64,000 nt of DNA from Escherichia coli (GCF_030384885.1 NZ_CP128613.1), one strand, 5' to 3'; counted from the stretch's first letter, positions 2,933 through 59,765 are shown. The notes: generated by a model not told the origin, from the sequence alone. Made by a program: numbers and translations.

Positions 2933-3484
2933 ATGCAAGATTCCATTCTGACGACCGTAGTGAAAGATATCGACGGTGAAGTGGCCACGCTGGAGAAGTA
3001 CGCCGGTAATGTGCTGTTGATTGTCAATGTCGCCTCAAAGTGTGGCTTAACGCCGCAATATGAGCAGTTGGAGAATATTCAGAAAGCCTGGGCCGATCGT
3101 GGTTTTGTGGTGTTGGGATTCCCGTGCAACCAGTTTCTGGAGCAAGAACCGGGCAGCGATGAAGAGATTAAAACTTACTGCACCACTACCTGGGGGGTGA
3201 CGTTCCCGATGTTCAGTAAGATTGAAGTTAATGGCGAAGGACGCCATCCGCTGTATCAAAAATTGATTGCCGCAGCGCCGACGGCAGTCGCGCCGGAAGA
3301 GAGCGGATTCTATGCCCGTATGGTCAGCAAAGGTCGTGCACCGCTGTACCCTGATGATATTTTATGGAATTTTGAGAAATTTTTAGTTGGCAGGGACGGA
3401 TTGGTCATCCAGCGTTTTTCCCCGGATATGACGCCGGAAGATCCCATTGTGATGGAAAGCATTAAACTGGCGTTGGCGAAATAA
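2933..3484 (+). CDS. btuE: Glutathione-peroxidase-family thioredoxin/glutathione peroxidase
   Basis: 183-aa ORF with GPx-family motifs ([26 protein letters not shown]); AGGAG SD; stop overlaps btuD start (TAATG). Confidence 0.95.
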
Positions 3485-4233
3485 TGTCTATTGTGATGCA
3501 GCTACAGGATGTTGCGGAATCAACCCGCCTTGGGCCGCTTTCTGGCGAGGTTCGGGCTGGGGAGATCCTGCATCTGGTGGGGCCGAATGGCGCGGGTAAG
3601 AGTACCTTACTGGCGCGAATGGCCGGAATGACCAGCGGTAAGGGAAGCATTCAGTTCGCGGGGCAACCACTGGAAGCATGGTCCGCAACAAAACTCGCGC
3701 TGCATCGCGCCTATCTTTCACAACAACAGACGCCACCGTTTGCAATGCCGGTCTGGCACTACCTGACACTGCATCAGCACGATAAAACGCGTACCGAACT
3801 ACTGAATGATGTCGCAGGGGCGCTGGCTCTTGATGACAAACTCGGACGTAGCACCAATCAACTTTCCGGCGGCGAATGGCAACGCGTACGTCTTGCTGCG
3901 GTGGTGCTGCAAATCACACCACAAGCCAATCCCGCAGGCCAATTACTACTTCTTGATGAGCCTATGAACAGTCTTGATGTTGCGCAACAAAGTGCGTTAG
4001 ACAAAATTCTGAGCGCGCTGTGTCAGCAAGGACTGGCGATTGTTATGAGCAGTCACGATCTCAACCACACCTTGCGTCATGCGCATCGGGCGTGGTTGCT
4101 AAAAGGTGGAAAAATGCTGGCCAGTGGACGCAGAGAAGAGGTGCTCACGCCGCCAAATCTGGCGCAGGCCTATGGGATGAATTTTCGCCGTCTGGATATC
4201 GAAGGTCACAGAATGCTGATTTCGACCATCTGA
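3484..4233 (+). CDS. btuD: Vitamin B12 ABC importer ATPase
   Basis: 249-aa ORF with Walker [13 protein letters not shown] signature LSGGEWQR, Walker B LLLLDEP. Confidence 0.95.
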
Positions 4234-5021: not shown

Positions 5022-5735
5022 ATGAAGATTTTTTTGGAGAATCTTTATCGTTCTGATTGCTATTTCCTGCCGATAAGAGATAACCAGCAAGACCTTGTCG
5101 GCGTTGAGTTAATTACCCATTTCTCCAGTGAAGATGGTACGGTTCGTATACCGACGAGTCGGGTTATAGCGCAACTTACCGAGGAGCAACATTGGCAATT
5201 ATTTTCTGAGCAGTTGGAATTGCTAAAATCATGCCAACACTTTTTTATTCAACATAAACTCTTTGCCTGGCTTAATTTAACCCCACAAGTGGCTACTTTA
5301 TTATTAGACAGGGATAATTACGCGGGCGAACTATTAAAATATCCGTTTATTGAACTGTTGATTAATGAGAATTACCCGCATCTCGATGAAGGAAAAGATA
5401 ATCGCGATCTTTTGTCCTTATCGCAAATGTATCCCCTTGTGTTAGGTAATTTGGGCGCAGGCAATAGCACAATGAAAGCGGTTTTTGATGGTCTTTTCAC
5501 CCGCGTCATGCTGGATAAAAGTTTTATTCAGCAACAAATCACGCATCGCTCCTTCGAACCGTTTATTCGTGCGCTCCAGGCGCAAATTTCCCCATGTTGC
5601 AATTGCATCATCGCGGGGGGCATTGATACGCCAGAAATAATGGCACAGATTACCCCCTTTGATTTCCATGCTCTCCAGGGATGCCTGTGGCCTGCCGTTC
5701 CTGTAAATCAGATAACGACGTTGGTTCAGCGATAA
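5022..5735 (+). CDS. ydiV: Anti-FlhD4C2 factor, degenerate EAL-domain protein
   Basis: 237-aa ORF recognised as YdiV (MKIFLENLYRSDCYFLPIRDNQQDLVGVELITHF...); position after nlpC as in E. coli. Confidence 0.92.
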   Translation: MKIFLENLYRSDCYFLPIRDNQQDLVGVELITHFSSEDGTVRIPTSRVIAQLTEEQHWQLFSEQLELLKSCQHFFIQHKLFAWLNLTPQVATLLLDRDNYAGELLKYPFIELLINENYPHLDEGKDNRDLLSLSQMYPLVLGNLGAGNSTMKAVFDGLFTRVMLDKSFIQQQITHRSFEPFIRALQAQISPCCNCIIAGGIDTPEIMAQITPFDFHALQGCLWPAVPVNQITTLVQR

Positions 5736-14011: not shown

Positions 14012-14067
14012 TTTGGACTCTCGAAACAGAACATCAGGCCCGAGATACGGGCCTGTGGGATGCATGA

Positions 14068-14361
14068 TTAGCCGTAGCGAAAATCAATACCGAAGGTGCC
14101 TGCGGGATATTGCCACTGTTCGAGAATCGTATTGCCACACAACACCCGACAGGTGCCGCATTCGAGACAACCGGCGGAATCAAAATGTATGTTTCCTGCG
14201 TCATCCTGCTTATACAGTCCGGCAGGGCAAGCTTTCATTAATTTACGGAATTCATTGATATCGGGATTTGCCGCCAGAATGATATGCGGGTGACCCTCAT
14301 CAACATGGAATTTATTGACACCTAATTTGATGTCGACGTTAACCGTAGCGTTCTGGCTCAT
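14068..14361 (-). CDS. ydiT: FixX-like ferredoxin
   Basis: 97-aa ORF with Cys cluster (CPAGLY...DSAGCLECGTCRVLC); start overlaps ydiS stop (ATGA). Confidence 0.9.
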   Translation of the reverse strand: MSQNATVNVDIKLGVNKFHVDEGHPHIILAANPDINEFRKLMKACPAGLYKQDDAGNIHFDSAGCLECGTCRVLCGNTILEQWQYPAGTFGIDFRYG

Positions 14362-15647
14362 AGCGCGGTTGCTCCCTTAATGCCATCTTTCAGCAAGTTG
14401 ATCAGCCCAATTTTCTTCGCATGTCCCATGATCATTTTGCGTACCGGTTGGTTAGGCTTACCGTCGATAGTGAACATTTCGTTCATGATGTCGGCGACCA
14501 TTCGTGGGTATTGGCTAAACAGGCGCGGGTTTTCCATCAGCGCCGGGATCTTGCGAAAATGCTGCATATCACGCATGACGCAACTTTGTTCCAGCTCACG
14601 TTTGTATTGCGCCAGGCTGCTGGCGGAGAAGTCAGCGCGTTCTTTAGCGGCAATCACTGTTGTGGCAGCAGCCTGGGCCGATGCGATGGCTAAATCCATT
14701 CCGCGAACCGTAAAGCCCAGATTGAGGCAGAAACCTGCGGCATCACCGACGATCATCACGCCCTCATTAACCAGCTGCGGCACCATCGCCAGACCGCCTT
14801 CCGGCACCATGTGCGCGGAATATTCAAGCAGTTTGCCGCCGCTAATCAGTGGGCGAATGGCGGGGTGTTGTTTAAAATCTTCCAGCATTTGCGGCACGCT
14901 TTTTTTTGCATGGGCGATATCACCCAATCCACAAACCAGCCCCAACGATACGGAATCCTTGTTGGTATAGAGGAATCCGCCGCCCATCAGGCCGTCAGAA
15001 GGGGAACCGGCAAACAGCCAGGCGGTACCTTCCTCGCCCATAACATTAAAGCGATCGTTGATTTGCTCTGGTGTAAGACCAATAACCTCTTTAACACCAA
15101 CTGCGTAATGATGCGGATCGGAAGCGGGAACCATTCCCAGCGAGCGGCCAAGCATTGAGTTAACGCCATCAGCCAGAATCACTACATTCGCTTCGAGAAT
15201 ATCCTCCCCGGCCTGGACGCCAGTGACCTTGTTTCCTTCACGAACCAGCGCATCGACGCGAACACCCGGGATAAACTGCGCACCCGCCTGTTCGGCTAGT
15301 TCCATCAACCACGGGTCCAGACGATTACGCAATACGGTATAAGACGCGTGTTGCGGAACATCTGGTTGCTCGCGGTGAAAATCGAGGGTAACGGCACTCT
15401 CTTCGGTTAAGAAGGAGATTTTCTCGCGTGTGACCTTGCGTTCTACCGGTGCTGATGCAGCAAAGCCCGGAATGATCGCTTCAAGTGTGTGGGCATAAAG
15501 ACGCCCGCCGGTCATATTTTTGCATCCGGCACTGTCGCCGCGTTCTATCACCAGGACATCCAGCCCGGCTCGCGCCATGACCAGTGCGGCAACGCTACCG
15601 GCAACGCCCGCACCGACCACAATGGCATCAAATTTGTCATCCGACAT
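14358..15647 (-). CDS. ydiS: FixC-like flavoprotein (ETF-quinone oxidoreductase family)
   Basis: 429-aa ORF with N-terminal FAD-binding GxGxxG (VVGAGVAGSVAA). Confidence 0.92.
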   Translation of the reverse strand: MSDDKFDAIVVGAGVAGSVAALVMARAGLDVLVIERGDSAGCKNMTGGRLYAHTLEAIIPGFAASAPVERKVTREKISFLTEESAVTLDFHREQPDVPQHASYTVLRNRLDPWLMELAEQAGAQFIPGVRVDALVREGNKVTGVQAGEDILEANVVILADGVNSMLGRSLGMVPASDPHHYAVGVKEVIGLTPEQINDRFNVMGEEGTAWLFAGSPSDGLMGGGFLYTNKDSVSLGLVCGLGDIAHAKKSVPQMLEDFKQHPAIRPLISGGKLLEYSAHMVPEGGLAMVPQLVNEGVMIVGDAAGFCLNLGFTVRGMDLAIASAQAAATTVIAAKERADFSASSLAQYKRELEQSCVMRDMQHFRKIPALMENPRLFSQYPRMVADIMNEMFTIDGKPNQPVRKMIMGHAKKIGLINLLKDGIKGATAL

Positions 15648-26426: not shown

Positions 26427-26563
26427 CGTGTAATGGCTGCATGAAATAAACAATAAAATATAAATAACATTATCAGCCTGCTGACGGCTTGAAGAGAGTC
26501 ACAGTATCTTGTGCAACATTATTGGAAAGAGTGAGGGGCGAGGTAGCGAAGCGGAAAAATGTT

Positions 26564-26669
26564 AAAAAAAAGCCCATCGTGGGAGATGGGCAAAGACTAC
26601 ACACAGCAATTCGTTGTTTCACTCAGGGGATTTCCATGCTTATAAATCAATATGTTGATTTATAACCGT
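26564..26669 (-). ncRNA. rprA: RprA small regulatory RNA (RpoS translational activator)
   Basis: minus-strand sequence ACGGTTATAAATCAACATATTGATTTATAAGCATGGAAATCCCCTGAGTGAAACAACGAATTGCTGTGTGTAGTCTTTGCCCATCTCCCACGATGGGCTTTTTTTT matches RprA as I remember it, with terminal hairpin and U-tract; located in ydiL-ydiK intergenic region. Confidence 0.9.
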
Positions 26670-28353: not shown

Positions 28354-31300
28354 ATGATTCCACAGATTTCCCAGGCACCCGGCGTCGTTCAATTGGTGCT
28401 TAATTTTTTGCAAGAGCTGGAGCAACAGGGTTTTACTGGCGATACGGCGACAAGTTATGCCGATCGTCTGACAATGTCGACCGACAACAGTATTTACCAA
28501 CTTCTCCCCGATGCAGTGGTATTTCCGCGTTCGACCGCAGATGTGGCGCTGATCGCTCGTCTTGCCGCGCAGGAACGCTATTCATCGCTGATCTTTACCC
28601 CCCGCGGCGGCGGCACCGGCACTAACGGTCAGGCGCTCAACCAGGGGATTATTGTTGATATGTCCCGCCATATGAACCGCATCATCGAAATTAACCCTGA
28701 AGAGGGCTGGGTGCGCGTTGAGGCCGGGGTGATAAAAGATCAACTCAATCAGTACCTGAAACCGTTCGGCTACTTTTTTGCGCCGGAGCTTTCGACCAGC
28801 AACCGGGCAACGCTCGGCGGGATGATCAATACCGATGCATCCGGTCAGGGATCGCTGGTCTATGGCAAAACGTCAGATCACGTACTTGGCGTACGCGCGG
28901 TGTTGTTGGGGGGCGATATTCTCGATACGCAACCCTTACCCGTCGAACTGGCAGAAACGCTGGGTAAAACCAATACCGCAATCGGGCGAATTTATAACAC
29001 GGTTTATCAACGTTGCCGTCAGCAACGCCAGTTAATCATCAACAACTTCCCCAAACTTAACCGCTTTCTTACCGGTTACGATCTGCGTCATGTCTTTAAC
29101 GATGAGATGACCGAGTTCGACCTGACGCGCATTCTGACGGGTTCAGAAGGGACGCTGGCCTTCATTACCGAAGCGCGGCTGGATATTACGCCCTTGCCTA
29201 AAGTGCGCCGTCTGGTGAACGTCAAATATGACTCTTTTGACTCCGCGCTGCGTAACGCGCCGTTTATGGTTGAGGCGAGGGCGCTTTCGGTAGAGACGGT
29301 GGACTCAAAAGTGCTGAATCTGGCGCGGGAAGATATTGTCTGGCATTCCGTCAGCGAGTTGATTACCGATGTGCCTGACAAAGAAATGCTCGGGCTGAAC
29401 ATTGTGGAATTTGCTGGTGATGATGAGACGCTGATTGATGAGCGGGTAAATGCACTCTGTGCGCGGTTGGATGAACTGATTGCCAGCCAACAGGCAGGTG
29501 TGATTGGCTGGCAGGTGTGCCGCGAACTGGCGGGTGTTGAACGTATCTATGCGATGCGCAAAAAAGCCGTTGGTCTGCTTGGCAATGCCAAAGGTGCCGC
29601 TAAGCCAATTCCGTTTGCTGAGGATACCTGCGTACCGCCGGAACATCTGGCCGATTATATTGCTGAATTTCGCGCGCTGCTCGACAGCCACGGCTTAAGC
29701 TACGGTATGTTCGGTCACGTCGATGCAGGTGTCTTGCACGTCCGTCCGGCGCTGGATATGTGCGATCCACAACAAGAGATTTTGATGAAGCAAATCTCTG
29801 ATGATGTAGTGGCGTTGACTGCGAAATACGGTGGTTTGTTGTGGGGCGAACACGGTAAAGGTTTTCGTGCCGAATACAGCCCGGCGTTTTTCGGTGAGGT
29901 ACTTTACGGCGAATTACGTAAAGTCAAAGCGGCATTTGATCCACAAAACCGGCTCAACCCAGGGAAAATTTGCCCACCGGAAGGTATCGACGCGCCTATG
30001 ATGAAAGTGGACGCGGTGAAGCGTGGCACATATGATCGACAGATCCCCATCGCGGTACGCCAGCAGTGGCGCGGGGCAATGGAGTGTAATGGCAACGGTT
30101 TATGCTTCAACTTTGATGCCCGCAGTCCGATGTGCCCGTCGATGAAGATCACCCAGAACCGGATTCATTCACCGAAAGGACGCGCAACGCTGGTGCGTGA
30201 GTGGCTGCGTTTGTTGGCAGATCGCGGCGTTGACCCACTCAAACTGGAACAAGAACTGCCTGAATCCGGCGTCAGTTTGCGGACGTTAATTGCCCGCACG
30301 CGCAATAGCTGGCATGCGAATAAAGGCGAATATGACTTCTCACACGAAGTCAAAGAGGCGATGTCGGGCTGTCTGGCCTGTAAAGCTTGTTCGACCCAGT
30401 GCCCCATCAAAATTGATGTGCCGGAGTTTCGCTCTCGTTTCCTGCAGCTCTATCACACACGTTATTTACGCCCATTACGTGACCATTTGGTGGCAACGGT
30501 TGAGAGCTACGCGCCGCTGATGGCACGCGCGCCGAAAACCTTTAACTTCTTCATTAACCAGCCGCTGGTGCGCAAACTCTCGGAAAAACATATTGGCATG
30601 GTTGATTTGCCGCTGCTGTCGGTCCCCTCGCTGCAACAACAAATGGTGGGGCATCGCTCGGCAAACATGACGCTGGAACAGCTTGAAGCTCTCAATGCAG
30701 AGCAGAAAGCGCGCACGGTGTTGGTGGTGCAGGACCCCTTTACCAGCTATTACGATGCGCAAGTGGTGGCGGATTTTGTCCGTCTGGTCGAAAAATTAGG
30801 TTTCCAGCCCGTGTTACTGCCATTTTCGCCGAATGGCAAAGCCCAGCATATCAAAGGCTTTCTTAATCGTTTTGCGAAGACGGCGAAAAAAACGGCGGAT
30901 TTTCTCAACCGAATGGCGAAATTGGGAATGCCAATGGTGGGCGTCGATCCAGCGCTGGTACTTTGTTATCGCGATGAATATAAACTGGCTCTGGGCGAGG
31001 AGCGTGGCGAGTTTAAGGTCTTACTGGCGAATGAATGGTTGGCAAGCATACTTGAGTCACAGCCAGTGGCTACAGTCAGCGGTGAATCATGGTATTTCTT
31101 TGGTCACTGTACCGAGGTTACCGCTTTGCCGGGCGCGCCAGCACAATGGGCTGCGATATTTGCCCGTTTTGGCGCGAAACTGGAAAATGTCAGCGTGGGT
31201 TGCTGCGGCATGGCAGGGACTTACGGACATGAAGCGAAAAACCATAAAAATTCGCTCGGGATCTATGAGTTATCCTGGCATCAGGTGATGCAGCGACTGC

Positions 31301-31410
31301 CGCGTAACCGCTGTCTGGCGACCGGATATTCCTGCCGTAGTCAGGTCAAACGGGTTGAAGGCACGGGGGTACGCCATCCTGTGCAGGCTTTACTGGAGAT
31401 TATTAAATGA
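28354..31410 (+). CDS. ydiJ: FAD-linked oxidoreductase fused to Fe-S/CCG domains (GlcD-GlcF-like; putative D-2-hydroxyacid dehydrogenase)
   Basis: 1018-aa ORF: N-terminal PCMH-type FAD-binding region (RGGGTGTNGQA), C-terminal ferredoxin-type CLACKACSTQCP and CCG motif GCCGMAG. Confidence 0.92.
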   Translation: MIPQISQAPGVVQLVLNFLQELEQQGFTGDTATSYADRLTMSTDNSIYQLLPDAVVFPRSTADVALIARLAAQERYSSLIFTPRGGGTGTNGQALNQGIIVDMSRHMNRIIEINPEEGWVRVEAGVIKDQLNQYLKPFGYFFAPELSTSNRATLGGMINTDASGQGSLVYGKTSDHVLGVRAVLLGGDILDTQPLPVELAETLGKTNTAIGRIYNTVYQRCRQQRQLIINNFPKLNRFLTGYDLRHVFNDEMTEFDLTRILTGSEGTLAFITEARLDITPLPKVRRLVNVKYDSFDSALRNAPFMVEARALSVETVDSKVLNLAREDIVWHSVSELITDVPDKEMLGLNIVEFAGDDETLIDERVNALCARLDELIASQQAGVIGWQVCRELAGVERIYAMRKKAVGLLGNAKGAAKPIPFAEDTCVPPEHLADYIAEFRALLDSHGLSYGMFGHVDAGVLHVRPALDMCDPQQEILMKQISDDVVALTAKYGGLLWGEHGKGFRAEYSPAFFGEVLYGELRKVKAAFDPQNRLNPGKICPPEGIDAPMMKVDAVKRGTYDRQIPIAVRQQWRGAMECNGNGLCFNFDARSPMCPSMKITQNRIHSPKGRATLVREWLRLLADRGVDPLKLEQELPESGVSLRTLIARTRNSWHANKGEYDFSHEVKEAMSGCLACKACSTQCPIKIDVPEFRSRFLQLYHTRYLRPLRDHLVATVESYAPLMARAPKTFNFFINQPLVRKLSEKHIGMVDLPLLSVPSLQQQMVGHRSANMTLEQLEALNAEQKARTVLVVQDPFTSYYDAQVVADFVRLVEKLGFQPVLLPFSPNGKAQHIKGFLNRFAKTAKKTADFLNRMAKLGMPMVGVDPALVLCYRDEYKLALGEERGEFKVLLANEWLASILESQPVATVSGESWYFFGHCTEVTALPGAPAQWAAIFARFGAKLENVSVGCCGMAGTYGHEAKNHKNSLGIYELSWHQVMQRLPRNRCLATGYSCRSQVKRVEGTGVRHPVQALLEIIK

Positions 31411-31817
31411 TATGGAAACGAAAAATCACCCTGGAAGCACTGAATGCCATGGGTGAAGGAAACATGGTGGGGTTACTGGATATTCGCTTTGAACATATTG
31501 GTGATGACACCCTTGAAGCGACAATGCCAGTAGACTCGCGGACAAAGCAGCCTTTCGGGTTGCTGCATGGAGGCGCGTCTGTGGTGCTAGCCGAAAGTAT
31601 CGGTTCCGTTGCCGGTTATTTATGTACCGAAGGTGAGCAAAAGGTGGTTGGTCTGGAAATCAATGCTAACCACGTCCGCTCGGCACGAGAAGGGCGGGTG
31701 CGCGGCGTATGCAAACCGTTGCATCTCGGTTCGCGTCACCAGGTCTGGCAGATTGAAATCTTCGATGAGAAAGGGCGTTTGTGCTGTTCGTCACGATTAA
31801 CGACCGCCATTTTGTGA
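31407..31817 (+). CDS. menI: Hotdog-fold thioesterase, 1,4-dihydroxy-2-naphthoyl-CoA hydrolase
   Basis: 136-aa ORF; start overlaps ydiJ stop (ATGA). Confidence 0.92.
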   Translation: MIWKRKITLEALNAMGEGNMVGLLDIRFEHIGDDTLEATMPVDSRTKQPFGLLHGGASVVLAESIGSVAGYLCTEGEQKVVGLEINANHVRSAREGRVRGVCKPLHLGSRHQVWQIEIFDEKGRLCCSSRLTTAIL

Positions 31818-32259: not shown

Positions 32260-32360
32260 ACTATTCTTATCGCCCCTTCAAGAGCTAAGCCACTGTGAGT
32301 GCCGGAGATAAGCGCCGGATGGGGTAGAAACCCTTAAGCCTGTGATGCACAGACTTAAGG
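32260..32360 (+). ncRNA. rydB: Candidate RydB-like small RNA locus (boundaries approximate)
   Basis: ydiH-sufA intergenic region; 5' hairpin (gccgg-agataagc-gccgg) and terminator-like hairpin aaacccttaag-cctgtgatgcacaga-cttaagggttt followed by tcttatttct; RydB is known to map between ydiH and sufA, exact sequence not recalled. Confidence 0.45.
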
Positions 32361-34527: not shown

Positions 34528-35274
34528 ATGTTAAGTATTAAAGATTTACACGTCAGCGTGGAAGATAAAACTATCCTGCGCGGATTAAGCCTCGACGTTC
34601 GTCCCGGCGAAGTTCACGCCATTATGGGGCCAAACGGTTCTGGCAAAAGTACCTTATCGGCAACGCTTGCCGGACGCGAAGATTATGAAGTGACGGCTGG
34701 CACGGTTGAGTTTAAAGGCAAAGATTTGCTTGCGCTGTCGCCGGAAGATCGTGCAGGTGAAGGCATCTTTATGGCCTTCCAGTATCCGGTGGAAATTCCC
34801 GGCGTCAGTAACCAGTTTTTCCTGCAAACGGCACTTAATGCGGTGCGCAGCTATCGCGGCCAGGAAACGCTCGACCGCTTTGATTTTCAGGATTTGATGG
34901 AAGAGAAAATCGCTCTCCTGAAGATGCCGGAGGATTTATTAACCCGTTCGGTAAACGTTGGTTTTTCCGGCGGCGAGAAAAAGCGCAACGATATTTTGCA
35001 AATGGCGGTGTTGGAACCGGAGTTATGCATTCTTGATGAGTCGGACTCCGGGCTGGATATTGACGCATTAAAAGTGGTTGCCGATGGCGTGAACTCGCTG
35101 CGTGACGGCAAGCGTTCATTCATCATTGTTACGCACTACCAACGCATTCTCGACTACATCAAACCTGATTACGTCCATGTGCTGTATCAGGGACGAATTG
35201 TGAAATCCGGCGATTTCACGTTGGTCAAACAACTGGAGGAGCAGGGTTATGGCTGGCTTACCGAACAGCAGTAA
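34528..35274 (+). CDS. sufC: Fe-S cluster assembly ATPase SufC
   Basis: 248-aa ORF with Walker A GPNGSGKST and ABC-type motifs. Confidence 0.96.
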   Translation: MLSIKDLHVSVEDKTILRGLSLDVRPGEVHAIMGPNGSGKSTLSATLAGREDYEVTAGTVEFKGKDLLALSPEDRAGEGIFMAFQYPVEIPGVSNQFFLQTALNAVRSYRGQETLDRFDFQDLMEEKIALLKMPEDLLTRSVNVGFSGGEKKRNDILQMAVLEPELCILDESDSGLDIDALKVVADGVNSLRDGKRSFIIVTHYQRILDYIKPDYVHVLYQGRIVKSGDFTLVKQLEEQGYGWLTEQQ

Positions 35275-36520
35275 CGCGCTGCAACAGTGGCATCACTTGT
35301 TTGAAGCTGACGGAGCGAAACGCTCCCCGCAAGCACAGCAGCATTTACAACAATTGCTGCGTACCGGACTGCCGACACGCAAACATGAGCACTGGAAATA
35401 TACGCCGCTGGAAGGGCTGACCAATAGCCAGTTTGTCAGCATTGCGGGAGAGATATCCCCACAGCAGCGAGATGCCTTAGCGTTAACGTTAGACGCTGTG
35501 CGGCTGGTGTTTGTCGATGGACGTTACGTGCCCGCGCTGAGCGATGCAACTGAAGGCAGCGGATATGAAGTGAGCATTAACGATGACCGCCAGGGGTTAC
35601 CCGACGCTATTCAGGCGGAAGTGTTTCTGCATTTAACGGAAAGCCTGGCGCAAAGCGTGACGCATATCGCCGTGAAGCGCGGTCAACGACCGGCAAAGCC
35701 ATTGCTGTTAATGCATATCACCCAGGGTGTGGCAGGTGAAGAGGTGAACACTGCCCATTACCGACATCATCTGGATCTGGCGGAAGGTGCCGAAGCGACG
35801 GTGATCGAACATTTTGTCAGCCTTAATGATGCTCGTCATTTCACCGGAGCGCGCTTTACCATCAATGTCGCAGCGAACGCCCACTTGCAGCATATCAAGC
35901 TGGCGTTTGAAAACCCGGTCAGTCACCACTTTGCCCATAACGATTTGTTGCTGGCTGACGATGCCACTGCATTTAGCCACAGTTTCCTGCTGGGTGGCGC
36001 AGTATTACGACACAACACCAGTACGCAACTCAATGGCGAAAACAGCACGCTGCGGATCAATAGCCTGGCGATGCCGGTGAAAAATGAAGTGTGTGATACC
36101 CGCACCTGGCTGGAACACAATAAAGGTTTTTGTAACAGCCGACAGTTGCACAAAACTATCGTCAGCGACAAAGGCCGCGCGGTATTTAACGGTTTGATCA
36201 ACGTCGCGCAGCACGCCATCAAAACGGATGGTCAGATGACCAACAATAATTTGCTGATGGGCAAATTGGCAGAAGTGGATACGAAACCGCAGCTGGAAAT
36301 CTATGCAGATGATGTGAAATGCAGCCACGGCGCGACGGTGGGGCGTATTGATGATGAACAGATGTTCTATCTGCGCTCGCGTGGGATCAATCAGCAGGAT
36401 GCCCAGCAGATGATCATTTACGCCTTTGCTGCCGAACTGACGGAAGCACTGCGTGATGAGGGGCTTAAACAGCAGGTGCTGGCCCGAATCGGTCAACGAC
36501 TGCCAGGAGGTGCAAGATGA
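35249..36520 (+). CDS. sufD: Fe-S cluster assembly protein SufD
   Basis: 423-aa ORF; start overlaps the 3' end of sufC by 26 nt. Confidence 0.93.
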
Positions 36521-37737
36521 CTTTTTCCGTCGACAAAGTGCGGGCCGACTTTCCGGTGCTTTCTCGTGAGGTAAACGGTTTGCCGCTGGCTTATCTCGAC
36601 AGCGCCGCCAGTGCGCAGAAACCAAGCCAGGTGATTGACGCCGAGGCCGAGTTTTATCGTCATGGCTACGCGGCGGTGCATCGCGGTATTCATACCTTAA
36701 GCGCCCAGGCGACCGAGAAAATGGAGAACGTGCGCAAGCGGGCATCGTTGTTTATCAACGCCCGTTCGGCGGAAGAGCTGGTGTTCGTCCGCGGCACGAC
36801 GGAAGGGATCAATCTGGTCGCCAATAGCTGGGGCAACAGCAATGTGCGGGCGGGCGATAACATCATCATCAGTCAGATGGAGCACCACGCTAACATTGTC
36901 CCCTGGCAGATGCTTTGTGCACGCGTTGGCGCAGAGCTGCGTGTGATCCCTCTCAACCCCGACGGTACGCTGCAACTGGAGACGCTGCCTACGCTGTTTG
37001 ATGAGAAAACTCGCCTGCTGGCAATTACCCATGTCTCCAACGTGCTTGGGACAGAAAATCCGCTGGTGGAGATGATCACGCTTGCGCATCAACATGGCGC
37101 AAAAGTACTGGTGGATGGCGCTCAGGCGGTGATGCATCATCCGGTGGACGTTCAGGCGCTAGATTGCGATTTTTACGTGTTCTCCGGGCATAAACTGTAT
37201 GGCCCCACTGGAATTGGCATTCTTTATGTCAAAGAAGCCTTGTTGCAGGAGATGCCGCCGTGGGAAGGGGGCGGTTCTATGATCGCCACCGTCAGCCTGA
37301 GTGAAGGGACTACCTGGACTAAAGCACCGTGGCGGTTTGAAGCCGGCACACCCAATACCGGAGGCATCATTGGTCTTGGCGCGGCACTCGAGTATGTTTC
37401 GGGGCTGGGGCTTAATAATATAGCCGAGTATGAACAGAATCTGATGCACTACGCGCTATCACAGCTGGAATCTGTACCGGATCTCACTCTCTATGGTCCC
37501 CAGAACAGACTTGGCGTTATTGCTTTTAATCTTGGTAAACACCACGCCTATGATGTTGGCAGTTTTCTCGATAACTACGGCATTGCTGTGCGTACCGGAC
37601 ATCACTGCGCTATGCCATTAATGGCCTATTACAACGTCCCTGCTATGTGTCGGGCGTCGCTGGCCATGTATAACACCCATGAAGAAGTTGATCGTCTGGT
37701 GACCGGATTGCAACGTATTCATCGTTTGCTGGGATAA
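36517..37737 (+). CDS. sufS: Cysteine desulfurase (PLP-dependent, group II)
   Basis: 406-aa ORF, class V aminotransferase family; ATGA overlap with sufD. Confidence 0.96.
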
Positions 37738-39928: not shown

Positions 39929-41341
39929 TTACAGGACGTGAACAGATGCGGTGTTAGTAGTGCCGCTCGGTACCAGTGCACCAGAAACCATAACTACGAC
40001 GTCACCTTTGTGTGCCAGACCGCTCTGCAGAGCCAGTTCTTTACCCAGACGGTAGAAATCATCAGTAGAAGTGATTTCTTTAACCAGCTGCGGCACAACG
40101 CCTTTGCTCAGTACCAACTGATGAGCCGTTTTTTCGTTGGTGGTCAGTGCCAGGATGGTGGCATCCGGGAAGTATTTACGTACTGCACGAGCAGATTTAC
40201 CGCCCTGGGTAGCAACCACGATCAGCGGAGCATCCAGTTTTTCAGCAGTTTCAACCGCGCCACGGCATACTGCTTCGGTAATGCGCAGTTTACGGTTGTC
40301 ATTGTTGAACTCGAGACGGCTGTTCATAACGCGGTCGGTACGTTCGCAGATGGTCGCCATGATAGAAACTGCTTCCAACGGGTATTTACCTTTTGCGGAT
40401 TCACCAGACAGCATTACTGCGTCAGTACCGTCGAGGATGGCGTTCGCAACGTCACCGGCTTCTGCGCGAGTCGGGCGTGGGTTTTTGATCATTGAATCGA
40501 GCATCTGGGTCGCAGTGATAACGACTTTACGTGCACGGATACATTTTTCGATCATCATCTTCTGGGCGAAGATAACTTCTTCAACCGGGATCTCAACGCC
40601 CAGGTCGCCACGCGCAACCATGATGCCGTCGGAGGCTTCGAGGATTTCGTCGAAGTTGTTCAGGCCTTCCTGGTTTTCGATTTTGGAGATGATTTGGATG
40701 TTTTCACCACCGTGTGCTTTCAGATGCTCACGGATTTCGATAACGTCAGAACGCTTACGAATAAAGGAGGCAGCAACAAAGTCTACGCCTTGTTCGCAAC
40801 CGAAGATCAGGTCTTGTTTGTCTTTTTCAGCCAGTGCTGGCAGGGCAATGGAAACACCCGGCAGGTTCACACCTTTGTTTTCGCCCAGGTCGCCGTTGTT
40901 CAGTACTTTACAGATAACTTTGTTACCTTCAATAGCGGTAACTTCCATACCGATCAGACCATCGTCAACCAGTACGGTGTTGCCAACAGACAGGTCGGTA
41001 GTGAAACCTTCATACGTTACCGCAACCATTTCGCTGTTGCCGATAACAGATTTATCAGTGGTGAAAGTAAAGGTCTGACCGGCTTTCAGAGAAACGTCGT
41101 TACCGCCTTCCAGTTTCATAGTGCGGATTTCTGGACCTTTGGTATCAAGCAGGATAGCGGCAGTTTTACCGGTTTTGCTCATCACGTTGCGCAGATTCTG
41201 AATGCGCTGACCGTGTTCTGCATAGTCACCATGAGAGAAGTTCAGACGCATAACGTTCATGCCAGCGTCCAGCATTTTAGCTAACATCTCTTCAGATTCG
41301 GTTTTCGGTCCGATGGTGCAAACAATTTTGGTCTTTTTCAT
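39929..41341 (-). CDS. pykF: Pyruvate kinase I (fructose-1,6-bisphosphate activated)
   Basis: 470-aa frame from internal ATG ([44 protein letters not shown]...); track ORF carries a 72-codon N-terminal extension, which I reject. Confidence 0.96.
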
Positions 41342-41546
41342 GACAGTCTTAGTCTTTAAGTTGAGAAGGATGGGAGAAACTTGCTTTCTGGGCGCACTGC
41401 CGGAAAGCGAATCCGGTATTACGAAAGTGGTGGTGCCTCGCTCTAAGGATAGGTGACATCGAAAAAGCGTGCAGAGGAATGTGTGCTTGTGTCTCAGCCC
41501 AACGTGAGTGCCTGTTTTTGAGTCGTTGAGTTCTACAGTCCAAAGT

Positions 41547-41897: not shown

Positions 41898-42107
41898 ATG
41901 GGAAACCGGACAAAAGAGGATGAACTGTACCGAGAAATGTGCAGAGTTGTCGGTAAAGTTGTGCTGGAAATGCGCGATCTGGGGCAGGAACCAAAGCATA
42001 TTGTTATCGCAGGCGTATTACGTACAGCATTAGCCAATAAACGCATTCAGCGCAGTGAGCTGGAAAAGCATGCGATGGAAACCGTCATTAACGCACTGGT
42101 TAAATGA
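41898..42107 (+). CDS. fumD: Small fumarase-like protein FumD (YdhZ)
   Basis: 69-aa ORF MGNRTKEDELYREMCRVVGKVVLEMRDLGQEPKHIVIAGVLRTALANKRIQRSELEKHAMETVINALVK. Confidence 0.85.
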   Translation: MGNRTKEDELYREMCRVVGKVVLEMRDLGQEPKHIVIAGVLRTALANKRIQRSELEKHAMETVINALVK

Positions 42108-45312: not shown

Positions 45313-45324
45313 GGAATGGGTGAG

Positions 45325-46038: not shown

Positions 46039-46707
46039 ATGTCCTTCACTCGACGCAAATTTGTTCTGGGGATGGGAACAGTAATCTTTTTTACTGGTTC
46101 TGCGTCTTCTCTGTTAGCGAACACGAGGCAAGAAAAGGAAGTTCGGTATGCCATGATTCATGACGAGTCACGGTGCAATGGCTGTAATATTTGCGCCCGC
46201 GCATGCCGTAAAACTAACCACGTCCCCGCTCAGGGAAGCCGTTTATCGATAGCACACATACCGGTCACCGATAACGACAACGAAACGCAGTATCACTTTT
46301 TTCGCCAGTCATGCCAGCACTGTGAAGATGCTCCTTGCATCGACGTTTGCCCAACAGGAGCGTCATGGCGTGATATGCAGGGGATCGTGCGGGTAGAAAA
46401 ATCGCAGTGCATCGGCTGCAGTTATTGCATTGGCGCTTGCCCGTATCAGGTTCGCTACCTTAACCCTGTCACTAAAGTGGCAGATAAATGTGATTTCTGC
46501 GCTGAGTCCCGACTAGCAAAAGGCTTTCCGCCCATTTGCGTTAGCGCCTGCCCGGAACATGCATTGATCTTTGGTCGCGAAGATAGCCCAGAAATTCAAG
46601 CGTGGTTGCAAGAAAATAAATATTATCAATATCAGCTACCTGGTGCCGGGAAACCGCATCTGTATCGCCGATTCGGTCAACATTTGATTAAAAAGGAAAA
46701 TGTATGA
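46039..46707 (+). CDS. ydhX: Tat-exported 4x[4Fe-4S] ferredoxin-like subunit
   Basis: 222-aa frame with twin-arginine signal (SFTRRKFVLGMG) and four Cys clusters (CNGCNICARAC, CQHCEDAPCIDVCP, CIGCSYCIGACP, CDFC...CVSACP). Confidence 0.88.
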   Translation: MSFTRRKFVLGMGTVIFFTGSASSLLANTRQEKEVRYAMIHDESRCNGCNICARACRKTNHVPAQGSRLSIAHIPVTDNDNETQYHFFRQSCQHCEDAPCIDVCPTGASWRDMQGIVRVEKSQCIGCSYCIGACPYQVRYLNPVTKVADKCDFCAESRLAKGFPPICVSACPEHALIFGREDSPEIQAWLQENKYYQYQLPGAGKPHLYRRFGQHLIKKENV

Positions 46708-47489
46708 ACCCGTCGCAACATGCTGAACAGTTTCAGAGCCAGTTGGTGAACTATGTGCCACAGTTCACTCCCGAATTTTGGCCGGTGTGGTTGATCATTG
46801 CCGGACTATTGCTGGTTGGGATGTGGTTGGTGCTGGGGCTGCATGCCTTGCTTCGTGCTCGTGGCGTGAAGAAATCAGCCACCGATCATGGTGAGAAGAT
46901 TTATCTTTACAGCAAAGCGGTCAGATTATGGCACTGGTCGAATGCGTTACTCTTTGTATTGTTGCTGGCAAGTGGGCTGATAAATCACTTTGCGCTGGTG
47001 GGAGCAACTGCGGTTAAAAGTCTGGTTGCGGTGCATGAAGTTTGCGGATTTTTGTTACTGGCATGCTGGCTCGGCTTTGTTCTGATCAATGCCGTTGGGG
47101 GTAATGGTCACCACTATCGCATTCGTCGTCAGGGTTGGCTGGAGCGAGCGGCAAAACAAACGCGATTTTATTTGTTTGGCATTATGCAGGGGGAAGAACA
47201 TCCTTTCCCGGCAACAACACAGTCTAAATTTAATCCCTTACAGCAGGTCGCCTATGTTGGTGTCATGTATGGATTGCTGCCGTTGTTACTATTGACGGGG
47301 CTGCTGTGTCTCTATCCGCAAGCCGTGGGAGATGTGTTTCCTGGCGTAAGATACTGGTTATTTCAGGCGCATTTTGCTCTGGCATTTATAAGCCTCTTTT
47401 TTATCTTCGGTCATCTTTATCTTTGCACCACGGGGCGTACGCCACACGAAACCTTTAAAAGCATGGTCGATGGCTATCACCGGCACTAA
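46704..47489 (+). CDS. ydhU: PhsC/cytochrome-b-like integral membrane subunit
   Basis: 261-aa hydrophobic ORF with conserved His residues in TM helices; ATGA overlap with ydhX. Confidence 0.88.
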   Translation: MNPSQHAEQFQSQLVNYVPQFTPEFWPVWLIIAGLLLVGMWLVLGLHALLRARGVKKSATDHGEKIYLYSKAVRLWHWSNALLFVLLLASGLINHFALVGATAVKSLVAVHEVCGFLLLACWLGFVLINAVGGNGHHYRIRRQGWLERAAKQTRFYLFGIMQGEEHPFPATTQSKFNPLQQVAYVGVMYGLLPLLLLTGLLCLYPQAVGDVFPGVRYWLFQAHFALAFISLFFIFGHLYLCTTGRTPHETFKSMVDGYHRH

Positions 47490-47492
47490 CGA

Positions 47493-48308
47493 ATGATCAT
47501 TACACGAGCAGACCTGCGAGAATGGCGTATCGGAGCGGTGATGTATCGCTGGTTCCTGCGCCATTTCCCACGCGGCGGTAGTTATGCCGATATTCATCAT
47601 GCACTTATTGAGGAAGGATATACGGACTGGGCGGAGAGTCTGGTTGAGTATGCGTGGAAAAAATGGCTGGCGGATGAAAACTTCGCGCATCAGGAAGTTT
47701 CTTCTATGCAAAAACTGGCCATAGATCCCGGAGGAGAGAGACCATTTTGCAGTCAGTTTGCCCGCAGCGACGATCATGCTCGCATCGGCTGTTGTGAGGA
47801 TAATGCCAGAATCGCAACTGCTGGGTATGCCGCGCAAATTGCCAGTATGGGTTATAGCGTGCGGATTGGAAGTGTCGGCTTTAACAGTCACATTGGCAGC
47901 TCCGGTGAACGCGCACGGGTTGCTGTAACCGGTAATTCTTCGCGGATAAGCAGCGCTGGAGATAGTAGTCGGATTGCGAATACCGGAATGCGAGTACGCG
48001 TTTGCACATTGGGTGAACGGTGTCATGTCGCCAGTAATGGTGACCTGGTGCAAATCGCCAGCTTTGGCGCAAACGCCAGAATTGCCAACAGCGGCGACAA
48101 TGTACACATCATTGCCAGCGGTGAAGATTCAACAATAGTGAGCACGGGCGTGGTCGACTCAATTATTCTCGGGCCAGGGGGAAGCGCCGCACTGGCATAT
48201 CATGACGGCGAAAGAGTTCGCTTCGCCGTCGCCATTGAAGGTGAAAACAATATTCGAGCCGGAGTCCGCTATCGCCTTAATGAACAGCATCAGTTTGTTG
48301 AGTGCTGA
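47493..48308 (+). CDS. ydhT: Uncharacterised protein with 15 tandem nonapeptide repeats
   Basis: 271-aa ORF; residues about 90-225 form 15 consecutive 9-residue units of pattern x-[R/H/Q]-[I/V]-x-x-x-G-x-x. Confidence 0.88.
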   Translation: MIITRADLREWRIGAVMYRWFLRHFPRGGSYADIHHALIEEGYTDWAESLVEYAWKKWLADENFAHQEVSSMQKLAIDPGGERPFCSQFARSDDHARIGCCEDNARIATAGYAAQIASMGYSVRIGSVGFNSHIGSSGERARVAVTGNSSRISSAGDSSRIANTGMRVRVCTLGERCHVASNGDLVQIASFGANARIANSGDNVHIIASGEDSTIVSTGVVDSIILGPGGSAALAYHDGERVRFAVAIEGENNIRAGVRYRLNEQHQFVEC

Positions 48309-50049: not shown

Positions 50050-50355
50050 TCAGGCGAGTTTTGCCTGATTGATTTGACTCAGTGGCTCATTGACATCGAA
50101 AACTTTGGCGACAACTTCCTCAACGCCGAGATTTTTCAGTCGGGCAGTATGTTTTTCCAGATAGGCAAGGGCGCTTTTTTCATCAGTGAAAAGGTAGATC
50201 CCACCGGCTTCGTGGTTCTTTTCACTTTCTGTCCATACCTTCCACAGAAAACCAGGTTCCTGATTAATCGACTCAGCAAGCGGTTTAAGCTGCTCAGCCA
50301 TTGCGTCGCCAAATGGGCCATTAAAAGCAAAATGAAGTTGTAACAAAGTTGCCAT
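50050..50355 (-). CDS. ydhR: Small Dabb/antibiotic-biosynthesis-monooxygenase-like protein
   Basis: 101-aa ORF; terminator hairpin downstream (aagggcg-gttag-cgccctt). Confidence 0.85.
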
Positions 50356-50462
50356 AGCGATTCTCCTTCTGATAACGCATACGAAGACAGTGTAAATCTT
50401 TTAACGTATTGGATACAGAGAAGAAACAGAGGGAAAAAGGAGAAGACCAGATTAAGAAAATC

Positions 50463-50539
50463 TGGTGCGTCCGAGTGGACTCGAACCACCGACCCCCACC
50501 ATGTCAAGGTGGTGCTCTAACCAACTGAGCTACGGACGC
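50463..50539 (-). tRNA. valW: tRNA-Val (anticodon GAC)
   Basis: minus strand GCGTCCGTAGCTCAGTTGGTTAGAGCACCACCTTGACATGGTGGGGGTCGGTGGTTCGAGTCCACTCGGACGCACCA: 77 nt, cloverleaf-compatible, encoded CCA; copy assignment valV vs valW inferred from gene order. Confidence 0.95.
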
Positions 50540-57257: not shown

Positions 57258-58190
57258 ATGTGGTCAGAATATTCACTCGAAGTTGTTGATGCGGTAGCGC
57301 GTAATGGTAGTTTTAGCGCTGCAGCCCAGGAGTTGCATCGCGTTCCTTCTGCGGTCAGCTATACCGTGCGTCAGCTGGAAGAGTGGCTGGCGGTGCCTCT
57401 GTTTGAACGACGTCACCGTGATGTGGAACTGACCGCTGCCGGAGCGTGGTTTCTCAAAGAAGGGCGCTCTGTTGTCAAAAAAATGCAGATCACTCGGCAG
57501 CAATGTCAGCAGATAGCGAACGGCTGGCGCGGTCAGTTAGCTATCGCAGTGGATAATATTGTCAGGCCAGAACGTACACGGCAGATGATCGTTGATTTTT
57601 ATCGCCATTTTGATGATGTCGAACTTCTTGTCTTTCAGGAAGTGTTCAACGGTGTCTGGGATGCGCTTTCCGACGGGCGCGTGGAACTGGCGATTGGCGC
57701 AACACGCGCGATTCCGGTAGGCGGTCGTTATGCCTTCCGGGATATGGGGATGCTAAGCTGGAGTTGCGTTGTTGCCAGCCACCACCCGCTGGCGTTGATG
57801 GATGGCCCGTTCAGCGATGATACGTTGCGCAACTGGCCGTCATTGGTGCGCGAAGACACCTCGCGAACGCTACCTAAACGTATTACCTGGTTGCTGGATA
57901 ACCAAAAAAGACTTGTCGTGCCTGACTGGGAATCATCGGCAACCTGTATCTCGGCAGGATTATGCATAGGGATGGTGCCAACACATTTCGCCAAACCGTG
58001 GCTTAATGAGGGGACGTGGGTAGCATTAGAACTGGAAAACCCCTTTCCGGATTCGGCATGTTGTCTGACATGGCAGCAAAATGATATGTCGCCTGCGTTA
58101 ACCTGGTTGCTTGAGTATCTCGGCGATAGTGAGACGCTGAATAAGGAGTGGCTGCGGGAGCCGGAAGAGACTCCCGCAACGGGTGATTAA
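57258..58190 (+). CDS. punR: LysR-family transcriptional regulator
   Basis: 310-aa ORF with N-terminal LysR HTH; divergent from ydhC (punC). Confidence 0.9.
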
Positions 58191-59212
58191 CGACGATAGT
58201 CTCGGAACGGGCCGTCAGCCACGGAGCGGCGTTCAATCAAGCGCGGATGCACTTCAATGGACTGCGGTTCTTCACGTTTGTTGACGATACGATCCAACAG
58301 CATGTTGAACGCTGTTTCACCCAGCGAATCTTTTGGCTGATGGATCGTGGTCAGCGCCGGCGTAAAATAGCGGGCGTTGCGCACGTTATCATAACCGATC
58401 AGCGAAACATCCTGCGGGACGCGCAGACCCATTTCATCAGCAGCACAAAGTGCGCCCATTGCCATGATATCGCCACCACAGAAGACGGCAGTAGGGCGAT
58501 GCGGCTGCGACAGTATTTGCTGCATGGCGCGATAACCGGATTCAGGTTCAAAGTCACCCTGTACAATCCAGCTTTCCGGCACCTTGATCATCGCTTCTTC
58601 CATCGCCTTCATAAAACCGGCAAGGCGGCCTGCGCCAGTGTTACGTTCCAGCGGGCCGGGGATAACGCCGATTTCGCGGTGACCGCGTTCAATCAGATAA
58701 CGCCCGGCCATGTAGCCGCCTTCGAACGCGTTATCAATGACCGCATCGGTGAAGTCAGCTTTTGCTTCACCCCAGTCCATTACCACCATTGGGATATGGC
58801 GATACTCTTCCAGCATCGTCAGCAACGGCTCTGGGTACTCAGAACACATCACCAGCAGACCATCGACGCGTTTTTGCGCCATCATCGACAGATAAGCCCG
58901 CTGTTTCTCAAGATTGTTCCACGCATTACCCAGAATCAGGGTGTAACCTTTCTGGAAGCAATTTTTTTCAACCGCTTCAATTATCTCGGCAAAATAGGCC
59001 GCTTCGCTGCTGGTCGCCAGCAAACCGATAGACTTGGTGTGGTTAACCTTCAGGCTACGCGCCACCGCGCTAGGGGAGTAGTGTAATTCTTTGATCGCTG
59101 CCCACACGGCGTTGCGCGTTTCTTCAGCGACGAAACGTGTTTTGTTGATTACGTGTGACACAGTTGTAGTGGAAACGTTTGCTCGTTTCGCTACATCTTT
59201 TATTGTTGCCAT
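58187..59212 (-). CDS. purR: Purine repressor (LacI family)
   Basis: 341-aa [68 protein letters not shown]... Confidence 0.97.
59171..59186 (-). promoter_or_regulatory. PUR-box-like operator inside the 5' end of purR coding region
   Basis: minus strand GAGCAAACGTTTCCAC, matching PurR-box core CAAACGTTT; lies in codons about 9-14 of purR. Confidence 0.6.
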
Positions 59213-59253
59213 TCCATTTCACTCCAGACCCTAACTTCAGCTCCTGCAAAATC

Positions 59254-59274
59254 GCAAGGTAAACGTTTGCCTTT
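59254..59274 (-). promoter_or_regulatory. PUR-box-like operator in purR leader
   Basis: minus strand AAGGCAAACGTTTACCTTGC, about 45-60 nt upstream of purR ATG. Confidence 0.6.
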
Positions 59275-59510
59275 ACACACCTTACGCACAACAAAAGTGT
59301 TGCGGTACGCCGGAAAAACGACACGGAGCGTCAGGAAGGGGTCAATGGCCAGTACGCAAATAGTGTAAGCGTGGAATTTTGGCCGATCTTGACGAAAAGG
59401 GGAAGTGGTAAAAACACTTATCATTATAAATGACGGGAGATTTTTTCATCACAGTGTGTAAAAATGCGTAATATCACTTTTTGTGTGGTAATAAAAAAGG
59501 AGAAAACTTG

Positions 59511-59600
59511 ATGAGCACCGACCTTAAATTTTCACTGGTAACAACGATTATCGTCCTCGGTTTGATCGTAGCCGTGGGTTTGACTGCCGCGCTGCACTGA
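59511..59600 (+). CDS. ynhF: 29-aa single-TM small membrane protein
   Basis: ATG preceded by AGGAG SD (aaaaaaggagaaaacttg ATG); encodes MSTDLKFSLVTTIIVLGLIVAVGLTAALH; below the size cut-off of the supplied ORF track. Confidence 0.75.
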   Translation: MSTDLKFSLVTTIIVLGLIVAVGLTAALH

Positions 59601-59765
59601 TTTCCTCTCGAGGGAGCGCGTTCTCCCTCGCATCTCCTTCCTGTTTGTTAGCAAAATGGCAAAAGTGTTTTCTCTTTTTGTTATTTTCATTTTTTTGTGA
59701 TTGCTGTCATGCTTTCGCCACTTTAATGAATATCGCGTAATGACGCGAAGAGGTGGAGATAAGGC

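Follow-up and report, generated by a model that had tools for sequence, protein, structure and literature searches.

Whether start and stop codons that interlock within a few nucleotides mark genes that are translated together is a question raised by a stretch of Escherichia coli DNA of 64,000 nucleotides (GCF_030384885.1, NZ_CP128613.1; this whole stretch is referred to as the window), in which the start codon of menI (31407-31409, plus strand) overlaps the TGA stop codon of ydiJ (31408-31410). Textbooks have treated stop/start overlaps, and their connection with translational coupling, since trpBA. A preliminary description of the window had named several such overlaps and taken them to define co-translated units, the less obvious ydiJ-menI pair included.

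Overlapping gene junctions in the window

Coding regions were taken from the RefSeq/PGAP annotation of NZ_CP027579.1 (chromosome of E. coli strain 2013C-4282), to which the window is 100% identical; window coordinates are obtained by subtracting 759,607 from those of the record. The window extends from pheT to lhr and contains btuCED, ydiQRST-fadK, ydiJ-menI-ydiH, sufABCDSE, ydhYVWXUT and punC/punR/purR, and the 5-kb stretch around ydiJ-menI shares 95-99% identity with 5,420 other complete E. coli genomes. Among the 41 co-directional pairs of annotated neighbors, all of which were checked, four overlap by 4 nt, one by 1 nt and one by 26 nt, and the earlier list of overlaps was found to be complete.

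The ATGA overlaps (spacing -4) were located, in both the sequence and the RefSeq coding regions, where they had been described, namely at ydiJ-menI (31407-31410, plus strand; ydiJ 28354-31410, menI 31407-31817), sufD-sufS (36517-36520, plus strand; sufD 35249-36520, sufS 36517-37737), ydhX-ydhU (46704-46707, plus strand; ydhX 46039-46707, ydhU, annotated phsC, 46704-47489) and ydiS-ydiT (14358-14361, minus strand; ydiS 14358-15647, ydiT 14068-14361). In all four, an NTG start shares two bases with the upstream TGA on the same strand. Sequence and annotation also bear out the two remaining co-directional overlaps: btuE (2933-3484) and btuD (3484-4233) meet on the plus strand in TAATG at 3482-3486, where the btuE stop (3482-3484) and the btuD start (3484-3486) share one base, and sufC (34528-35274) overlaps sufD, which starts at 35249, by 26 nt (35249-35274, plus strand). 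The non-overlapping spacings are, in ascending order, +3, +4, +7, +8, +9, +11, +12, +12, +13, +19, +20 and +30 nt, followed by larger ones.

The sharing of stop codons between punR (57258-58190, plus strand, TAA at 58188-58190) and purR (58187-59212, minus strand, TAA read from 58189 to 58187) in the TTAA at 58187-58190 was likewise found in sequence and annotation. This is the abutting of the 3' ends of two genes and forms no co-translated unit. As in other convergent pairs with overlapping 3' ends, each mRNA must run into the other gene, and there is no translational consequence; any effect would be one of transcriptional interference or antisense pairing. A terminator scan around punR/purR gave nothing convincing, with matches at chance level only.

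The ATGA tetranucleotide occurs 568 times on the two strands of the window, with approximately 265 per strand expected from composition. The motif by itself is uninformative, while its placement at gene junctions is informative. A spacing of exactly -4 is found in 4 out of the 18 pairs that lie between -30 and +30 nt and is the modal spacing in the window; the binomial P of this enrichment is 1.8e-4 when the distance is fixed in advance and about 0.011 when any of the 61 distances is allowed. Nineteen genes in the window end in TGA, five of them in ATGA, and four of these five are true gene junctions. At the end of fumD (42104-42107) the sequence reads AAATGA, and the ATG therein opens only an unannotated open reading frame of 20 codons (MTIQDEAVSFILIFLVQLQSS); this ATGA is most likely a chance occurrence.

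Sequence accuracy and start codons

Sequence errors at the junctions were checked for and ruled out, because the junctions are nearly universal in E. coli genomes and have identical distances in K-12. The 121-nt regions around ydiS-ydiT, ydhX-ydhU and btuE-btuD are present in 5,370-5,422 out of 5,426 complete E. coli genomes, with the same gene annotations, and Table S2 of Huber et al. 2023 (PMC10666635) gives for K-12 a distance of -4 for each of ydiJ/menI, sufD/sufS, ydhX/ydhU and ydiS/ydiT, -1 for btuE/btuD and -26 for sufC/sufD, as in the window.

A misplaced start codon could also have created one or more of the overlaps, and some features speak for such an artefact. The equivalog profile of ydhU begins only at residue 11, with in-frame TTG/GTG codons at +13, +14 and +17; an in-frame ATG is found at codon +4 of btuD; and the starts of fadK and ydhW disagree between annotations in this same window. 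Against this, MenI, SufS (aligned over 1-406 of 406 residues), SufD and BtuD give full-length NCBIfam equivalog matches that begin at residue 1. In alignments with the solved structures of E. coli YdiI, the paralog EntH and H. influenzae HI1161, MenI is moreover matched from its first residue onward, its N-terminus MIWKR being also that of EntH and HI1161. An in-frame TAA immediately 5' of the menI ATG means that no earlier menI start is possible, and the first 40 codons of the ydiT open reading frame offer no start codon other than its ATG. Furthermore, the menI ATG is kept in 77 of 79 species, and the sufS and sufD ATGs in every locus examined. The ATG of ydhU, with no other start between it and the in-frame stop before it, is the least secure of the starts, and it is where the residual doubt about re-annotation lies. 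That any of the overlaps is an annotation artefact is consequently hardly likely at all. A YdiJ-MenI fusion by way of frameshifting was also considered, and is ruled out by the TAA in the menI frame directly before the ATG.

Shine-Dalgarno motifs and RNA structure

Duplex energies with the anti-Shine-Dalgarno sequence were calculated for 59 genes in the window, with a median of -6.2 kcal/mol. Five of the six downstream genes at overlaps have a usable Shine-Dalgarno motif. The strongest of these, and second strongest in the window, is the AGGAGG of sufS (36505-36510, plus strand, inside sufD; -11.6 kcal/mol), followed by the GGAGGAG of sufD (35235-35241, plus strand, in the sufC codons CTG GAG GAG; -9.3 kcal/mol). 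The ydiT motif GGGAG lies inside ydiS, 10 nt before the ATG (14372-14376, minus strand; -7.6 kcal/mol), the menI motif GGAG lies 8 nt before the ATG and falls in the ydiJ codons CTG GAG (31395-31398, plus strand; -6.4 kcal/mol), and a Shine-Dalgarno-like AGGA precedes the ydhU ATG by 6 nt (46694-46697, plus strand; -5.6 kcal/mol). The exception is btuD, which is essentially without such a motif (-1.9 kcal/mol).

Coupling could also proceed by the unfolding of an inhibitory structure. The 129-nt junction regions (-99 to +30) were found to have no greater folding stability than their dinucleotide-shuffled versions (z from -1.2 to +1.5), and an alignment of 27 ydiJ-menI junctions gave a weak consensus fold of -9.5 kcal/mol with a covariation term of -0.31 and essentially no compensatory changes. 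With neither an excess of structure nor covariation, this route has no specific support, which leaves two others, termination-reinitiation and independent initiation from the Shine-Dalgarno motif within the upstream gene.

Conservation of the junctions

A scan for MenI with one genome per species gave 80 loci, with identities of 79%-100%, in Escherichia, Salmonella, Citrobacter, Klebsiella, Enterobacter, Kluyvera, Kosakonia, Lelliottia and other genera, and the neighboring genes were located by tblastn. A ydiJ homolog was found upstream of menI in all 79 loci that reach far enough. The junction between the two reads ATGA in 77 of these 79 species, TTGA in one and TGATG (-1) in one, so that NTGA occurs in 78 of 79. 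The TTGA, with a TTG start, belongs to Salmonella enterica subsp. arizonae (L012), in which the sufD-sufS spacing is also +2, and the -1 overlap, in the form of TGATGA, to Kosakonia cowanii (L049). The sufD-sufS spacing is -4 in 43 of 44 species, and the sufC-sufD overlap is -26 in 47 of 47, with an almost invariant dual-coding stretch of 26 nt. Thus, the overlap junctions ydiJ-menI, sufC-sufD and sufD-sufS are fixed across 44-79 species, while the adjacent non-overlapping spacers drift between genera (sufB-sufC 9-159 nt, sufS-sufE 11-14 nt and menI-ydiH 77-372 nt). The conservation of the overlaps is partly forced, as start and stop are both required anyway.

In ydiJ, the third positions of the CTG and GAG codons that carry the menI Shine-Dalgarno motif have zero entropy among the 79 species (GAG in 79 of 79). 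A control Glu codon 13 positions upstream is GAA in 57 and GAG in 22, and neighboring codons have entropies of 0.7-1.9 bits. The menI motif is under clear purifying selection, which fits reinitiation helped by a Shine-Dalgarno motif, as observed in the majority of E. coli pairs tested. The three sufC codons holding the sufD motif (CTG GAG GAG) show no variation in 47 of 47 species, and the GGAGG of the sufS motif is mostly conserved across the species compared. Selection acts on the Shine-Dalgarno motifs embedded in the upstream genes.

The window has AAA (Lys) as the last codon of ydiJ (31405-31407), and so do three of the other four Escherichia loci (4 of the 79 loci), while 72 of the 79 species have GGA (Gly). 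The third base of this codon, A, is set by the menI ATG in every locus except that of K. cowanii with its -1 junction.

Distant menI homologs were reached by an exhaustive profile search of representatives together with contig look-ups; a word-indexed protein search with MenI returned close relatives only (at least 82% identity) and did not widen the taxonomic range. At 58-60% MenI identity, ydiJ-like and menI-like genes again overlap by -4 in ATGA, with CTGGAG, in two homologs (L083, at 2583, and L084/L085, at 4001 in L084). At 52% identity, in locus L091 (3989-4001), they still lie side by side with a spacing of +11 nt, and the junction has an AGAGGA of its own. In four other contexts of distant menI homologs that were examined, the ydiJ neighbor was absent and unrelated neighbors were found. 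Two records carry an Enterobacteriaceae-type menI (82-83% identity) under foreign labels: one labeled Chryseobacterium sp. 18061 (L055), with complete ydiJ-menI-suf synteny under a Bacteroidota label, and one labeled Vagococcus sp. WN89Y (P0047), a Firmicutes label. Both source records are probably contaminated or mislabeled assemblies.

Other tight junctions and features nearby

Two further junctions in the window, missing from the preliminary description, are at least as good candidates for coupling as the listed overlaps. In the ydhU-ydhT junction, TAAcgaATG (47487-47495, plus strand), the genes are separated by +3 nt and ydhT is without a Shine-Dalgarno motif (-1.7 kcal/mol). The ynhH-pykF junction (41339-41351, minus strand) has a spacing of +7 nt, and pykF also lacks the motif (-1.3 kcal/mol); ynhH is a small open reading frame with a TTG start.

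Two starts differ between annotations. PGAP places the fadK start (minus strand) at 14011, giving 548 aa and a distance of 56 nt from ydiT, and the long open reading frame and the K-12 table place it at 14065, giving 566 aa and a start 2 nt after the ydiT stop; a Shine-Dalgarno motif is absent at both (-3.0 and -1.7 kcal/mol). ydiT-fadK may hence be a further tight junction. The ydhW start is at 45316 or 45325, making the ydhV-ydhW spacing +3 nt in the K-12 listing and +12 nt in PGAP. A usable motif (AGGA, -7.2 versus +0.6 kcal/mol) exists at the +12 start only, which suggests that the K-12 start call may be too early.

Rfam matches at the gathering score comprised rydB (32272-32332, between ydiH and sufA), RprA (26562-26669, minus strand), STnc550 (59213-59603, spanning cydH, upstream of ydhP), STnc540 (1734-1892, from the ihfA 3' end to just before btuC) and HPnc0260 (50339-50501, antisense to the tRNA-Val pair).

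Discussion

The six co-directional pairs are very probably co-transcribed, since the overlaps leave no space for a terminator and a promoter between the genes. Consensus scans for promoters and terminators around ydiJ-menI gave chance-level matches only. The sufABCDSE, ydhYVWXUT, ydiQRST-fadK and btuCED clusters are described operons. The earlier statement that the listed junctions define co-translated units is borne out in part. Coupling is what is usually deduced from -4 and -1 junctions, and the frozen junctions and the invariant Shine-Dalgarno motifs speak for it; the statement does not extend to punR/purR, which are convergent.

The junctions themselves are already known: they are of the commonest bacterial type, and the pairs have been tabulated for K-12. 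In E. coli, as in 1,695 prokaryotic species, co-directional genes are most often, and by a wide margin, spaced at -4, with -1 and -8 next (PMC10666635; PMC12548453), and spacings from -8 to +6 are found in 707 of 2,987 E. coli pairs (PMC10666635). Family-level data point in the same direction for some of the pairs, with values of -3.3 and -4 over 224 pairs for COG0644@COG2440, the FixC-FixX family pair (Table S4, PMC10666635), and a central value of -1 over 713 pairs from the SufB/D to the SufS family (PMC10666635, tables). The fixC-fixX pair (ETF-quinone oxidoreductase and ferredoxin-like) is a paralogous but separate locus that, like ydiS-ydiT, has a -4 spacing in K-12, and YdiT scores 144 bits, below the FixX equivalog cut-off of 166 bits, as expected of a paralog.

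By analogy with pairs that have been assayed, these are quite probably ordinary operon-internal junctions whose genes are translationally coupled through termination-reinitiation. On one mRNA, the upstream stop codon (UGA or UAA) and the downstream AUG share bases, and a ribosome that terminates on the upstream gene would come free right at the next start codon. This ribosome, or its 30S subunit, would then re-engage the adjacent AUG, aided, where present, by the Shine-Dalgarno motif in the last upstream codons. The invariance of these codons at synonymous sites, together with the frozen junctions, supports such coupling. Reporter assays in E. coli have found hyfHI, astDB, ydbH/ynbE as well as menDH to be strictly coupled and bioBF not, with coupling in the tested native ATGA pairs mostly dependent on the Shine-Dalgarno motif (PMC6728339). 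The TeRe pairs menDH, hyfHI, astDB, ydbH-ynbE and trpB-trpA show the same ATGA or TAATG with an embedded Shine-Dalgarno motif within an operon as do the pairs of the window. They differ in having been tested experimentally, whereas the window pairs are catalogued only, with identical K-12 distances; in the searchable literature, no published test was found for any pair of the window, neither of coupling for ydiJ/ydiI or sufD/sufS nor of polar effects within btuCED. Coupling efficiency is greatest from -4 to +3 nt and declines by +20 to +40 nt (PMC12548453). The four -4 pairs and btuE-btuD lie within the range of efficient coupling (about -8 to +6/+10 nt), and sufC-sufD, at -26, falls outside it.

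The main alternative is co-transcription with independent translation of each gene, in which the overlaps are a by-product of compaction and of the ease with which an ATG becomes ATGA. A review explains the abundance of the -4 spacing in part by its easy evolution (PMC12548453), yet this spacing is enriched far above the neighboring ones. Downstream genes could also initiate on their own, as the Shine-Dalgarno motifs of five of the six reach or exceed the window median in strength, those of sufS and sufD being the most pronounced, and no structure is predicted that would block initiation until opened by upstream translation. However, four of the five tested E. coli ATGA pairs are strictly coupled despite their Shine-Dalgarno motifs, and an internal ribosome-binding site would be covered by ribosomes elongating along the upstream gene. 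The fifth pair, bioB-bioF, has the same 4-nt overlap as the ATGA pairs of the window and bioF was initiated de novo in the reporter assay, so an overlap alone is insufficient evidence of coupling (PMC6728339). Translation-efficiency ratios from ribosome profiling are, moreover, about as variable in overlapping pairs as in non-overlapping ones (PMC5318159), and overlaps of -25/-26 gave no coupling in synthetic operons (Tian and Salis, summarized in PMC12548453). Independent translation is least compatible with the btuE-btuD junction, where the downstream gene has no Shine-Dalgarno motif though its product is a required subunit of the BtuCD transporter. Taken over all six pairs, independent translation seems rather unlikely, and termination-reinitiation is the preferred reading.

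Dependence on coupling is expected to differ between the pairs. It should be highest in btuE-btuD (-1, no Shine-Dalgarno motif), intermediate in ydiJ-menI, ydhX-ydhU and ydiS-ydiT (-4, moderate motifs) and lowest in sufD-sufS (-4, AGGAGG) and sufC-sufD (-26, GGAGGAG). With no Shine-Dalgarno motif at its -1 junction, btuD is the best candidate among the overlaps for obligatory reinitiation, and ydhT is an equally good one. For sufS and sufD, coupling is least certain because both have strong motifs of their own and sufD in addition has the -26 overlap; their translation probably starts largely independently of the upstream gene. Four of the window pairs are scored as 'no complex' in the table of Huber et al. 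2023, and a stoichiometry rationale is accordingly not obviously applicable to ydiJ-menI, sufD-sufS and btuE-btuD.

The depth of conservation of ydiJ-menI, throughout Enterobacteriaceae and in homologs at 58-60% and 52% identity, gives a small hint of a functional link. YdiJ is a D-2-hydroxyglutarate dehydrogenase, an FAD/Fe-S enzyme yielding 2-oxoglutarate, and MenI is the DHNA-CoA thioesterase of menaquinone synthesis. In a partnership between them, YdiJ would pass electrons to (demethyl)menaquinone, or would supply 2-oxoglutarate to MenD. That the junction marks such a genuine partnership, more than the packing of genes, is quite unlikely.

In practical terms, the size of polar effects in Keio mutants varies with the intergenic distance (PMC8547470), and deletions or insertions in ydiJ, sufD, ydhX, ydiS and btuE should be assumed to have a polar effect on the gene that follows. 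The absence of a Shine-Dalgarno motif makes btuD and ydhT good natural test cases for obligatory reinitiation. Deletions of ydiJ may be polar on menI, in which case ydiJ phenotypes would partly be menaquinone phenotypes. The one mildly interesting remainder is the depth to which ydiJ-menI is conserved, with its hint of a link between D-2-hydroxyglutarate oxidation and menaquinone synthesis.
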